64,000 nt of DNA from positions 6,417-70,416 of the forward strand of contig JBBQQR010000006.1 of assembly GCA_038215615.1 (NCBI GenBank), in the 5' to 3' direction. The DNA is from Vulcanimicrobiales bacterium (lineage in GTDB: Bacteria > Vulcanimicrobiota > Vulcanimicrobiia > Vulcanimicrobiales > Vulcanimicrobiaceae). The position numbers were made by a program, and so were the translations under genes. Below, piece after piece: positions 24,717 through 41,699 of the stretch; the first letter of the stretch is position 1, and the number at the start of each line of letters is the position of its first letter. The notes beneath the pieces were generated by a model. That model did not search any database and was not told the DNA's origin. It was given only the letters and a program-made list of their open reading frames with translations.

Positions 24717-24759
24717 TTGTAGTGATTTTGGGCGGGTGATATACTATTCGCCTGTGCCC
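24717..24759 (+). promoter_or_regulatory. Putative sigma70-type promoter of rpoB with extended -10 and a downstream CTGTGCCC box
   Basis: TTGTAG (24717-22), N17, TG-n-TATACT (24737-45), N6, CTGTGCCC (24752-59). It lies about 140 nt upstream of the rpoB ATG. Confidence 0.45.
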
Positions 24760-24893
24760 TGGCCGCTAGGCATAAAATAGAGAAAGAGCGAGTCACCACA
24801 TGCGGAGTGGTCGGCTTCGTTCTTTTTAGCGTGCTCGGGTCTGCGCAAAACGGCTTCCTTCCTTATATACACTTCCATAGAGAGAGATAACGA

Positions 24894-37883: not shown

Positions 37884-40800
37884 TTGAACCTCATAGACGT
37901 CAACAATTTCGATGCGATGCGAATCGGTTTGGCATCGCCCGAGCAGATCCGCGCGTGGTCTTTCGGTGAAGTCAAAAAACCCGAGACGATCAATTATCGC
38001 ACGCTCAAGCCCGAGCGCGACGGTCTGTTTTGCGAGAAGATCTTCGGTCCCACCAAAGACTGGGAGTGTCACTGCGGCAAGTATAAGCGGATCCGCTTCA
38101 AGGGCATGATCTGCGATCGCTGTGGCGTCGAGATCACCCGCGCGAAAGTGCGTCGCGAACGCATGGGGCACATCGAATTGGCGACTCCGGTCAGCCACAT
38201 CTGGTATTTCAAGGGCGTGCCCAGCCGTATCGGCATTCTGCTCGACATGTCGCCGCGCCAGCTCGAAAAGGTGATCTATTTCGCGGCTTACGTCGTCATC
38301 GATGCGGGCAGTACGCCGCTGCAGAAACGCGAAGTTCTCACGGAGCAAAAATACCGCGAGTATCGCGAAAAGTACGGCACCGCTTTCAAGGGCGGCATGG
38401 GAGCCGAGGCGATCCGCGAGCTTCTCCGCGATTTGAATTTGCGCAAGCTTCAGGAAGAGCTGCGCAGCGAATTCCAAACGACGAGCGGGCAGAAACGCCT
38501 CAAGGCCATCAAGCGTCTGGAGGTTGTCGAAGCGTTTATCAATAGCGGCAACAAGCCGGAGTGGATGATTCTGTCGGCCGTTCCGGTCATCGCTCCGGAA
38601 TTACGCCCGATGGTGCAGCTCGACGGCGGCCGTTTTGCGACCTCCGATTTGAACGATCTCTACCGCCGCGTCATCAACCGCAACAATCGCCTCAAGCGGC
38701 TGCTGGAACTGTCCGCGCCCGAGATCATCATCAAGAACGAAAAACGCATGCTCCAGGAAGCGGTCGACGCGCTGATTGACAACGGCCGCCGCGGGCGCCC
38801 CGTCACCGGGCCAAACAACCGTCCGTTGAAATCTCTTTCCGATATCTTAAAAGGAAAGCAGGGACGCTTCCGGCAGAACTTGCTCGGCAAGCGGGTCGAT
38901 TACTCGGGCCGCTCGGTTATCGTGGTCGGTCCGACGCTCAAACTGCACCAGTGCGGCTTGCCCAAAGAGATGGCGCTCGAGCTCTTCAACCCCTTCGTCA
39001 TGAAGAAACTCGTCGACCGCGGTCAGGCGCACAACATCAAGAGCGCCAAGCGCATGGTCGAACGCGTACGTCCGGAAGTGTGGGACGTTCTCGACGAGGT
39101 CATCCGCGAACATCCGGTTCTCTTGAACCGCGCTCCCACGCTTCACCGTTTGGGCATCCAAGCTTTCGAGCCGGTGCTCGTTGAAGGCAAAGCCATTCAT
39201 CTGCATCCGTTGGTCTGCACGCCGTACAATGCCGACTTCGACGGCGACCAGATGGCCGTGCATTTGCCGCTCTCCGCGGGCGCGCAGGCCGAAGCCCGCA
39301 TCCTGATGCTCTCCTCGAACAACATTTTGCTCCCGGCTTACGGCAATCCGGTTTCCATTCCCACCCAAGACATGGTTCTCGGGCTGTATTACCTCACGTT
39401 CCACCTCGACGAGTACGTCGGGCCGGCCAAAGCCGCGATCGCCGACGACTACGACGCGAAGGTCGAACGCGAGGACAGCGTTTCGCGCAGCAACGGCAAG
39501 CGCAAAAAGGGCAAAGCCCAGGACGAAGGCGCTCCGCGCATGCACTCGTTCAGTAGCCCCGACGAGGCCATCATGGCGCACGAGACGCATCACGTGGCGC
39601 TGCAAGAGTGGATCAACGTCCGCTGGCGCGGAGAGCTGATCCGCACGACGGTCGGGCGCGTCATCTTCAATAACGCGTTTCCCCAGAATTGGAATCACCC
39701 GTACGCCAACAACATCTTCGACAAAAGCGCGCTTAAGAAACTGATCACGGATTGCTACCGCAAATACGGAAATGCCGAAACGGCAAAATTCCTGGACGCC
39801 ATTAAAGACCTCGGCTTCCACTACGCGACGCAGTCGGGGACGACCGTTTCGATTACCGACATCATCTTGCCCGAAGCGAAGTACGAAATCCTGAACAAGG
39901 CGCAGGGCGAAGTCGACGAGCTTCACCGCCTGTACGAGCAAGGCTTCATTTCGCACGACGAGCAGTACAACAAGACGATCGACATTTGGTCGAAAGCCAG
40001 CGACGACGTCAGTGAGGCAATGCAGAGTTCGTTCAGCCCGCTCAACCCGGTATTCATGATGGCAACCTCGGGCGCGCGCGGCTCGATTGCCCAGGTCAAA
40101 CAGCTGGGCGGCATGCGCGGACTGATGTCCGATCCTTCCGGCCGGATTCTTGAGATTCCGGTGAAAGCGTCGCTCAAAGAAGGCCTTACCGTTCTGGAAT
40201 ACTTCATCTCGACACACGGTGCGCGTAAGGGCTTGGCCGATACCGCGCTGCGCACGGCCGACTCGGGTTACCTGACGCGCCGTCTCGTCGATGTGGCGCA
40301 GGACGTCATCATCCGCGAAGAAGACTGCGGAACGTCCAACGGCATCTTGGTCTCGGACATCGCCTCGGGCAAAGAAATCATCGAGCCGCTCGGCGACCGC
40401 ATCATCGGGCGCCGCGCTGCCGAAGATATCAAAGAGGGCCGTACGGTCATGGCCAAACGCGACAGCGAGATTGACGAAGAGAAGGTCAAGACGATTCTTG
40501 AACACGGCATCAAGAGCGTGAAGATCCGTTCCGTCCTAACGTGTAAAGCGAAGTACGGCGTCTGCTCGATGTGCTACGGCCGCAACCTCGCGACCGGTAA
40601 CAAAGTCGACATCGGCGAAGCGGTGGGCATCATCGCGGCGCAATCGATCGGCGAGCCGGGCACGCAGCTCACGCTGCGAACGTTCCACACCGGCGGCGTG
40701 GCCACCGAAGACATCATCACGGGCCTTCCGCGCGTTGAGGAGATATTCGAAGCCCGCAAACCCAAGGGCCAAGGCACCATCGCCGAACACAACGGCAAAG

Positions 40801-41699
40801 TCAAATTCGGCGAAGAGAAGAACCGCCGCGTGGTATTCGTCGTTGACGAGACCGGCGAGGAGCACGAGTACGATATCGGGCACGGTATGCATCTGCTCGT
40901 GCACGAAGGCGACCAGGTTTCCATCGGCGATCAGCTTAGCGAAGGATCGCTCAACCCGCACGATATTCTGCGGGTCAAGGGCGAGACGGCGCTCCAAAAC
41001 TACCTTGTGGAAGAAGTCCAGAAAGTCTACCGCTCGCAAGGCGTCGACATCAACGACAAGCACATCGAGGTTATCGTGCGGTCGATGCTGCGCAAAGTCA
41101 AAGTGCGCGACGGCGGAGACACACAGATGCTTCCGGGGCAGCTGGTGGAACACGCGAACTTCGTCGAACACAACGAGCGACTCGGCTCGGGCGATCGGAA
41201 AGCGACGGCGGATCCGGTGCTTCTGGGTGTCACCAAAGCATCGCTCGCCACCGAATCGTTCTTGTCGGCGGCCTCGTTCCAGGAGACCACACGCGTTCTG
41301 ACCGACGCGGCGATCAAAGGCAAACACGATCCGCTGCTCGGGTTGAAAGAGAACGTCATCATCGGCAAGCTGATTCCGGCCGGCACGGGGATGTCGCGAT
41401 ACCGCAATATCAAAATCGAGCCCGAGGGTCAGGATCTCGACGACGACGGCCGTCCGCGCAATCAGTTCGAGGCTTCGGTCTACGATACGATGAGCGCCGA
41501 CGACGCGGCGTTAGCCGAAGTCATGGCTGCCAGCGGCGACGGCATGCAGAAACTCGTGAGTGCTTACGACCGGACTCGCGAGCCTGCGACGGTGCAGTAC
41601 GAAGGCGAGTATGCAGACCATACCGCCGTGCACGCTCCGCCGAAAAAGACGCAGTACGACAAGACCGGCTTCAAGGGGATTAGCCCCGAAGATCTGTAG
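37884..41699 (+). CDS. rpoC: DNA-directed RNA polymerase subunit beta-prime
   Basis: TTG start (GGAG 6 nt upstream). [40 protein letters not shown], Zn finger [22 protein letters not shown] and catalytic [12 protein letters not shown]. 1271 aa. Confidence 0.98.

Follow-up and report, generated by a model that had tools for sequence, protein, structure and literature searches.

Separated rpoB and rpoC genes in Candidatus Eremiobacterota: an inherited gene order with predicted separate transcription units

The adjacent genes rpoB and rpoC, encoding the beta and beta-prime subunits of RNA polymerase, are routinely cited among the most conserved gene neighbourhoods in bacteria. The stretch of DNA analysed here, 64,000 nucleotides of contig JBBQQR010000006.1 (positions 6,417 to 70,416; assembly GCA_038215615.1) from a Vulcanimicrobiales bacterium and hereafter called the window, carries both genes with unrelated genes between them. 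This raises the questions of whether the separation is real, how it arose and how the two subunits could be kept in balance. The explanation that best covers the whole of the evidence, with a probability of about 0.8, is an inherited split in which rpoB and rpoC would form separate transcription units with matched promoters and leader-level control. The physical part of this explanation is certain: the split is a real, inherited gene order and not an artefact.

The two polymerase genes were located as follows:

24894–28817, plus strand: rpoB, RNA polymerase beta subunit, 1307 amino acids, with all six Rpb2 Pfam domains
37884–41699, plus strand: rpoC, RNA polymerase beta-prime subunit, 1271 amino acids, TTG start, with five Rpb1 Pfam domains

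Both genes lie on the same strand with rpoB first, and exactly 9,066 bp separate the rpoB stop from the rpoC start. An earlier sequence-only reading of the window had given the same end of rpoB, start of rpoC and gap, and all three were reproduced from the open reading frames (ORFs), the Pfam matches and the measured distance. The start of the region at 24717 in that reading falls inside the rpoB promoter, in its -35 hexamer, and is not the rpoB start codon (24894). RpoB of the window was 100% identical to protein P0121 and 96% identical to the beta subunit of Candidatus (Ca.) Rubrimentiphilum, while RpoC was 94% identical to protein P0001 and carries the active-site motif NADFDGD (ADFDGDQM). 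The full domain sets, the catalytic motif and nearest relatives that are beta and beta-prime subunits of the same phylum identified the two genes as orthologues of rpoB and rpoC.

Second copies of rpoB occur in some actinomycetes, and the pair in the window might by analogy represent extra paralogues, with the housekeeping pair elsewhere in a canonical operon. We consider this very unlikely, given that the two proteins are complete, with no Pfam domain missing and the catalytic motif in place, and that their closest relatives are annotated as beta and beta-prime subunits of Eremiobacterota, at 81–100% identity. Each large contig appeared once per list among the best 120 matches, and the window and each related locus held a single rpoB and a single rpoC, a count of loci and not of whole genomes. 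In addition, the RpoB tree placed these sequences in one clade beside Firmicutes and Actinobacteria, as expected of a species lineage.

The termini of both proteins are unusual. At its N-terminus, RpoB carries a basic extension of low complexity, about 75 amino acids long (residues 1–75; 24894–25120), and at its C-terminus a strongly acidic tail of about 155 amino acids with runs of E and D (residues ~1150–1307; 28340–28817), and the C-terminus of RpoC (41400–41699) carries an extra stretch of about 90 amino acids. These tails were without counterpart in the 80 control loci described below and poorly conserved even inside the phylum. The acidic RpoB tail was also found in L107, a lineage in which rpoB and rpoC are adjacent.

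The closest matches to both RpoB and RpoC came without exception from Ca. Eremiobacterota (WPS-2; Vulcanimicrobiota, Vulcanimicrobiaceae at NCBI), the nearest named relative being Ca. Rubrimentiphilum. The source of the window appears to be metagenome-assembled (P0121 lies on an NCBI contig), and conserved genes can attract chimeric joins, so that rpoB or rpoC might have been joined to unrelated sequence by misassembly at one or both junctions. Against this, RpoB sequences with 96% identity were present on at least 10 contigs, and the neighbouring genes were the same from 10 kb upstream of rpoB through the STAS gene that precedes rpoC in two ENA samples, two JGI samples and one NCBI genome. 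Two similar contigs span both junctions into the same downstream genes. One of them, JGI contig Ga0494708_0000014 (418,592 bp), has rpoB at 323748–327665 and rpoC at 337791–341606, a gap of 10,125 bp. Its interval holds the gene series of the window plus two extra small minus-strand ORFs, and its rpoC is followed, as in the window, by a 207-amino-acid ORF, a helicase, a desaturase and a BTAD regulator. The G+C content (GC) was uniform across both junctions (0.58–0.63), and split arrangements recurred on contigs of 2.3–2.7 Mb. Because both junctions were reproduced independently and GC was flat, misassembly, which the sequence-only reading had named as the event that would remove its finding, is excluded for practical purposes; the chance that is left to it is negligible, and the finding stands.

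The extent of the arrangement was surveyed by a metagenome scan anchored on a 65-amino-acid RpoB segment, with 8-mers that Eremiobacterota conserve and the control loci lack, together with targeted look-ups. The following gaps were found:

0 bp: L107
320 bp: L160 and L169
1,490 bp: L157
1,626 bp: L090
2,226 bp: L165
2,313 bp: L089
3,514 bp: L174 and L175, on a 2.66-Mb contig
3,534 bp: L150
4,086 bp: L091
8,500 bp: L116
8,515 bp: L120
9,066 bp: the window
10,125 bp: L085 and L173
29,963 bp: OY970388.1, a 2.28-Mb chromosome-scale sequence

No rpoC was present within the ~9.1–9.2 kb of sequence after rpoB in 28 further loci, and in L082 the 10 kb ahead of rpoC contained no rpoB. Order and strand were the same in every locus that showed both genes. 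In a neighbour-joining tree of RpoB, split states occurred in both major clades, and one lineage only was truly adjacent. The control comprised 80 loci (Firmicutes, Actinobacteria, Chloroflexi and others) picked by their rpoC match alone among the matches listed, which had come via universal motifs such as ADFDGDQM in a genome-collection scan with the whole of RpoC; this mode of choice makes the control unbiased. There, rpoB directly preceded rpoC in all 77 loci with enough upstream sequence, at spacings from overlap to 490 bp. Uncoupled rpoB and rpoC are thus common across the Eremiobacterota loci, a clade-wide precedent that the sequence-only reading had foreseen as weakening its claim of novelty, and the 9-kb split therefore was not a one-off event: the arrangement of the window is a genus-level instance of a phylum-level trait. 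Among open-access papers, no report of rpoB-rpoC separation in Eremiobacterota or other free-living bacteria was found, nor any account of the promoter signature and leader elements presented below, nor any paper mentioning both Eremiobacterota and rpoC, and the paper on the first cultured member is silent on gene order. As far as can be told, an uncoupling of rpoB and rpoC that spans the phylum is unreported.

The usual partners of the polymerase genes were also missing. Pfam scans of the flanking ORFs revealed no rplKAJL, rpsL, rpsG, fusA or tuf in the 64-kb window. Queries with the proteins of a Bacillus secE-nusG-rplKAJL-rpoBC-rpsL-rpsG-fusA-tuf-S10 locus (L046) matched rpoB and rpoC alone, both in the window and in 95 related loci (1.34 Mb), and in those loci no ribosomal-protein or elongation-factor gene lay within ~10 kb of rpoB or rpoC. 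The claim that rplKAJL is absent upstream of rpoB and rpsL-rpsG-fusA downstream of rpoC thus held under both searches. In our proposal, the ancestral secE-nusG-rplKAJL-rpoBC-str cluster would have come apart around the polymerase genes in this phylum, and the space between rpoB and rpoC would have become a site where unrelated genes accumulated.

The interval of the window encodes eight such genes:

28922–32362, plus strand: TonB-dependent outer-membrane receptor with a CarboxypepD_reg N-domain (Pfam)
32372–33484, plus strand: 370-amino-acid lipoprotein with an LAGC lipobox, read from the translation and without Pfam match
33581–33856, minus strand: 91-amino-acid ORF without known domain, 81–83% identical in genus-level relatives, where an 88-amino-acid gene is called
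33902–34000, minus strand: 32-amino-acid hydrophobic ORF, 87–90% identical in relatives, where a 32-amino-acid gene is called
34057–34797, plus strand: alpha/beta hydrolase (Pfam Abhydrolase)
34802–35941, minus strand: pseudopilin-like protein with an N-terminal methylation motif (Pfam N_methyl, residues 50–72)
35733–37367, plus strand: transporter of the MFS family (Pfam MFS_1)
37423–37752, plus strand: single-domain STAS protein, 109 amino acids (Pfam)

Every gene that had been listed for the interval was recovered at its place by Pfam and ORF translation. The lipoprotein gene begins 9 bp after the receptor gene and is probably co-transcribed with it. The true start of the pseudopilin probably lies downstream of the longest-ORF start (relatives have a 333-amino-acid gene call), and that of the MFS transporter probably near 35.85 kb (496–507-amino-acid calls in relatives).

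Homology searches placed the receptor, lipoprotein, small ORFs, MFS and STAS genes in the interval only within the genus-level group of the window. The alpha/beta hydrolase, by contrast, recurred across the major clade to which the window belongs: L082, L091, L094, L116, L120, L150, L153, L155, L163, L172 and L173 carry homologues (40–91% identity) either in the rpoB-rpoC interval or a short way ahead of rpoC, and identity was 40–57% in many divergent lineages. A NAD-binding dehydrogenase (2-Hacid_dh_C/NAD_binding_2) and a protein of ~150 amino acids, with a weak DUF5069 match in one locus, also recurred and often preceded the hydrolase; in L174, the dehydrogenase gene begins 3 bp past the rpoB stop. 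The hydrolase and dehydrogenase neighbourhoods were located as follows:

34057–34797 of the window
5605–7795 of L082
6455–8643 of L172
6876–8214 of L174

Among the genes in the 30-kb interval of OY970388.1 are glycosyltransferases, genes for polysaccharide export (Poly_export, Wzz) and a toxin-antitoxin-type pair (RES/Xre). The STAS gene was considered as a conserved partner of rpoC and rejected, as L081 lacks it and the ORF that takes its place in L172 is unrelated.

This distribution bears on whether a mobile genomic island recently entered between previously adjacent genes. The confinement of the receptor-lipoprotein, small-ORF, MFS and STAS genes to one genus-level group would fit an island, as would the accessory cargo (polysaccharide-export and toxin-antitoxin-type genes) in the intervals of other lineages. 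However, relatives without these genes already have the two polymerase genes apart and the hydrolase between them, and the rpoC promoter and leader described below are common to those already-split lineages. The separation therefore predates the lineage-specific additions. Moreover, neither an integrase or transposase Pfam domain nor a tRNA was present in or next to the interval (direct repeats were not searched), and GC showed no deviation (0.58–0.63 throughout). A recent island accordingly has only a slender chance of being correct. The pattern instead suggests that the break is old and that accessory genes have since come and gone repeatedly, with the hydrolase as a probable old resident.

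Whether the physical split is also a transcriptional one was judged from the promoter and terminator signals at the two genes:

24717–24745, plus strand: predicted rpoB promoter, -35 TTGTAG, 17-bp spacer, -10 TATACT, read from the sequence
24752–24773, plus strand: predicted start-site motif CTGTGCCC, 6 nt past the rpoB -10
28820–28849, plus strand: 11-bp GC-rich hairpin with T-rich tail directly past the rpoB stop, a probable intrinsic terminator
33508–33549, both strands: predicted strong bidirectional intrinsic terminator, which would close both the receptor-lipoprotein operon and the small ORFs that converge on it
37741–37769, plus strand: predicted rpoC promoter TTGACC-17-TATAAT, whose -35 overlaps the end of the STAS gene
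37776–37783, plus strand: predicted start-site motif CTGTGCCC, 6 nt past the rpoC -10, the same distance as at rpoB
41703–41732, plus strand: weak terminator-like hairpin just past the rpoC stop, from the terminator scan

In the hairpin after rpoB, 28820–28830 pairs with 28836–28846 around a 5-nt loop (−23.3 kcal/mol; 9 of 200 shuffles folded as well), followed by TTTCTTT, and a looser terminator scan accepted it. The 11-bp GC hairpin noted earlier at this place was confirmed by the fold and the shuffles. Terminator-like hairpins with T-rich tails followed rpoB in 32 of 74 distinct related sequences, as against 12 of 600 random windows, and many of the remaining rpoB 3' ends carried strong GC hairpins. 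The terminator at 33508–33549 has a 14-bp stem followed by TTTTTTATTTT (−28.8 kcal/mol, z = −6.2), and none of 200 shuffles folded as well. Three of the interval genes lie on the minus strand.

The predicted rpoC promoter has hexamers close to TTGACA and TATAAT at a spacing within the 16–18 bp of sigma-70-type promoters. With 11 of 12 consensus matches, it was the best promoter-like site in the 18 kb scanned, in agreement with the near-consensus promoter claimed before. Upstream of rpoC, a TAnAnT -10 box was present in 14 of the 15 loci with a gap of at least 320 bp, followed by CT[GA]TG or a close variant. These boxes were usually preceded by a TTGAC-like -35, only the -10 being seen in L165. 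Transcription probably starts at CTGTGCCC, which was conserved across the rpoB leaders. A short 5' hairpin (UGCC...GGCA) is possible within 24752–24773, and it is not the minimum-energy fold found for the window. The pattern TAnnnT-N5-8-CT[GA]TG[CT]N occurred twice on the two strands of the window, at 24740 and 37764, that is, at the predicted rpoB and rpoC promoters. The composite of -35, -10 and start motif occurred 70 times in 1.31 Mb of related loci: 60 times at rpoB, 10 times at rpoC and nowhere else. It stood upstream of rpoB in 60 of 65 related loci.

A single functional operon could nevertheless persist if transcription from the rpoB promoter read through the 9 kb into rpoC, the internal signals being weak or modulatory. 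The same strand and order in every locus where both genes were seen would fit this, as would the imperfect T-tract of the post-rpoB hairpin, which the consensus scan did not call. Read-through at operon junctions is known in E. coli ribosomal-protein clusters (PMC6735719). Such a transcript would, however, have to pass both the rpoB hairpin and the terminator at 33508–33549, and would run antisense across the three minus-strand genes. The 11/12-consensus rpoC promoter recurs in relatives even at a 320-bp gap, and in the 2.28-Mb sequence the gap extends to 30 kb with Poly_export, Wzz and RES/Xre genes. We therefore regard read-through as improbable and the assignment of rpoB and rpoC to separate transcription units as well supported by the predicted signals. 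Of the uncoupling as originally claimed, the physical half was established by the same gene order in independent assemblies, and the transcriptional half is argued from sequence signals only.

Between the predicted start sites and the two genes, the leaders carry one candidate regulatory element each:

24779–24827, plus strand: terminator-like (attenuator-like) hairpin in the rpoB leader, consisting of an A-rich tract, a stem and then TTCTTTTT
37797–37858, plus strand: conserved 62-nt element in the rpoC leader, GGTGGG-N3-4-CTYACGTGAC-NN-CGTGAG...CCCTGCG

The rpoB-leader hairpin was called in part by the terminator scan (24802–24820 plus the T-tract). The same layout was present in most rpoB leaders, with a short stretch past the start motif followed by the A-rich tract, the hairpin and the U-tract. 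Equivalent hairpins occurred in 34 distinct related leaders, with folding energies that ranged from about −19 to −46 kcal/mol and mostly fell between −21 and −28; these folds were made per sequence and tabulated from a conserved CGAG anchor, an approach that leans towards pairing. The stems differed in sequence between lineages, with pairing kept. No consensus structure emerged from RNAalifold on a MAFFT alignment of these hairpins, because the alignment did not bring the 3' arms into register. The hairpin resembles a leader attenuator, and such a function is plausible from its build. A near copy of the start-site motif at 24752–24759 (C-T-[GA]-T-G-C-C-C) in the same sense directly follows the U-tract of the rpoB leader (24819–24837), reading TTTTTAGCGTGC in the window and TTTTTGGTGTGCCC in other lineages.

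The rpoC-leader element was common to the major clade of the window, with 34 invariant columns across 12 loci. A three-helix stem-loop model paired 97.9% of cells and included two compensatory pairs, and its covariation score was reached by 2 of 500 shuffles. The covariance model matched only upstream of rpoC in 1.34 Mb. For both leaders, Rfam 15 returned nothing at the gathering threshold and chance-level matches only at permissive E-values. In L157, which belongs to the other major clade, a hairpin and U-tract built like the module of the rpoB leader stand before rpoC instead, and L160 shows the same more weakly. An alternative long-range CTTACG/CGTAAG pairing in the rpoC leader was rejected, since the CTCACG of L173 and L175 would break it; the same CTCACG improves the inner hairpin (U-G to C-G). 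A five-codon mini-ORF (GTG GGN NNC CTT ACG TGA) in the element was dropped for want of a clear ribosome-binding site.

Taken together, these observations would make rpoB and rpoC separate, essentially monocistronic transcription units. Transcription of rpoB would begin at its own sigma-70-type promoter, pass a 142-nt leader with the terminator-like hairpin and stop at the GC hairpin past the stop codon. That of rpoC would begin at its near-consensus promoter and pass a 108-nt leader with the conserved three-helix element. Both predicted promoters are built alike (-35, 17 bp, -10, 6 nt, CTGTGCCC), with a signature seen at no other gene in the sampled sequence. Given separate units that share this signature and carry leader elements, matched promoters with leader control are the likeliest route to a balance of beta and beta-prime, and we infer that they replace operon coupling. 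Co-transcription and translational coupling would then play no part, and surplus subunits would probably be degraded. The sequence-only reading had held that beta and beta-prime stoichiometry must be set by some other mechanism. This was a reasonable suggestion, but the puzzle is less dramatic than it was made to appear, because rpoA (in the alpha operon) and rpoZ are unlinked from rpoBC in bacteria generally. Leader regulation and the mechanism of stoichiometry are predictions here.

A bolder version of this mechanism is possible, although we hold it to be doubtful. Here, a dedicated two-gene regulon, formed by the shared promoter cassette and undescribed leader RNAs that sense polymerase supply, would have replaced the operon coupling of beta and beta-prime. 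Polymerase supply would be sensed by the rpoB attenuator, which in one clade also stands before rpoC, and by the three-helix element of rpoC. Such feedback would have made the break tolerable and let the interval become an insertion hot-spot. If this were true, the rpoC-leader element would represent a new class of regulatory RNA.

Several points weigh against the explanation that we prefer, an inherited split with separate units, matched promoters and leader control. The survey covered rpoB-anchored metagenome contigs, which do not amount to a census of complete genomes. The post-rpoB hairpin escaped the consensus terminator scan, because its T-run and the last bases of its stem overlap. Where transcripts start, how efficiently they end and whether they read through were all judged from DNA. 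The shared signature could be a general mark of strong housekeeping promoters in the phylum, since the sampled loci hold no ribosomal-protein or rRNA operons. Folding of the whole leaders was no better than that of shuffled sequences (z = −0.85 for rpoB and +0.68 for rpoC), scores that are not significant, so that the case for leader structures comes from comparison between sequences only. Finally, most pairs of the rpoC-leader model never vary, so that a DNA operator or a site for protein binding would explain the element equally well.

The flanks of the polymerase genes contain further unrelated genes. Those upstream of rpoB encode MFS, multicopper oxidase, GST and LolA-like proteins and a 144-amino-acid ORF. 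Downstream of rpoC follow the 207-amino-acid ORF, an SF1 helicase with an RNase_H_2 domain, a fatty-acid desaturase and a BTAD regulator. The 207-amino-acid ORF (41706–42329, plus strand) has no Pfam match and starts 7 nt past the rpoC stop. Its 5' end overlaps the terminator-like hairpin and its 3' end the convergent helicase gene (42261–45743, minus strand); it is called in L173 and absent in L081, and its reality is uncertain. The RNase_H_2 and SF1 helicase combination was also present downstream of rpoC in L081, L172 and L173. L107, L109, L157 and L160 represent the clade in which the gaps are short or missing; there, the gene ahead of rpoB differs from that of the window and ends in a conserved peptide, ...VPFQPRGDKPVYCRDCF... 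(e.g., L160, ~291–410), that looks like a zinc-ribbon motif.

Elsewhere in the window, a tRNA-Pro(GGG) gene (9626–9702, plus strand) was the sole tRNA and the sole Rfam match at the gathering threshold. A Beta_elim_lyase ORF (15871–16689, minus strand) encodes 272 amino acids with a Pfam match from profile position 68, and relatives have 342 amino acids in the same place; the difference may reflect truncation, a frameshift or a wrongly set start of the ORF. The GC of 55000–59500 was 0.535–0.556, against 0.60–0.63 elsewhere. Two large LuxR/GerE-family regulators lie at 53978–56743 and 56792–59434, the second with an AAA_22 ATPase domain, and this low-GC region may be acquired DNA.

A free-living phylum in which the pair is broken in most sampled lineages, by 0.3 to at least 30 kb, constitutes a natural experiment on the real need for co-transcription and co-translational assembly of the two largest polymerase subunits. 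It offers candidate compensating elements in the form of matched promoters and conserved leaders, and these are testable, as Vulcanimicrobium alpinus is in culture. In addition, synteny annotation, operon prediction and contig-chimera checks that assume adjacency of rpoB and rpoC will misjudge the genomes of this phylum.

With the canonical rplKAJL-rpoBC operon of E. coli and Bacillus, the window shares orthologous rpoB and rpoC genes on the same strand with rpoB first. The standard order, as in the Bacillus locus, is secE-nusG-rplKAJL-ybxB-rpoB-rpoC-rpsL-rpsG-fusA-tuf. In E. coli, an attenuator lies between rplL and rpoB, to which the terminator-like hairpin upstream of rpoB in the window bears a likeness. 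In contrast to the canonical operon, the window has neither adjacent polymerase genes nor ribosomal-protein genes upstream nor the str operon (rpsL-rpsG-fusA-tuf) downstream, the last being common but not universal in bacteria. Instead, eight unrelated genes on both strands separate rpoB from rpoC within the 9,066 bp, each polymerase gene has its own predicted promoter, and rpoB has its own probable terminator hairpin. Lineage-wide departures from the two-gene unit also exist in Helicobacter and Wolbachia, where rpoBC is fused, and in cyanobacteria, where rpoC is split into rpoC1 and rpoC2, but in those cases the coding regions stay contiguous, whereas in the window the genes are intact and physically uncoupled. 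The unlinked rpoA and rpoZ genes show that a core subunit made from a separate transcription unit still assembles correctly; for them unlinking is the norm, which it is not for the genes of beta and beta-prime.

A 2026 Nucleic Acids Research (NAR) paper termed the rplKAJL-rpoBC locus universally conserved and listed no divergences beyond genes that lie between rplKA and rplJL and the rpoC1/rpoC2 split of cyanobacteria (PMC12993453). Published rearrangements of the wider cluster are insertions between operons, such as tusDCB between rpoBC and str (PMC8046335). These resemble the window in placing accessory genes within a conserved transcription and translation cluster, with flanking order and orientation kept, but here the break lies inside the rpoBC unit itself and the ribosomal-protein partners are absent altogether. 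In the chloroplasts of chlorophycean algae (Scenedesmus, Chlamydomonas), the rpo clusters are fragmented, with arrangements such as rps3-rpoC2 and rpoBb-rpoBa-/psbF-psbL (PMC1513399), so that there, too, rpoB and rpoC genes no longer stand in one cluster. Those are highly rearranged organelles with fragmented or expanded rpo genes, whereas the window comes from a free-living phylum and retains intact genes in their order and on their strand. The arrangement of the window is a variant of a known gene organisation and not a new kind of system.

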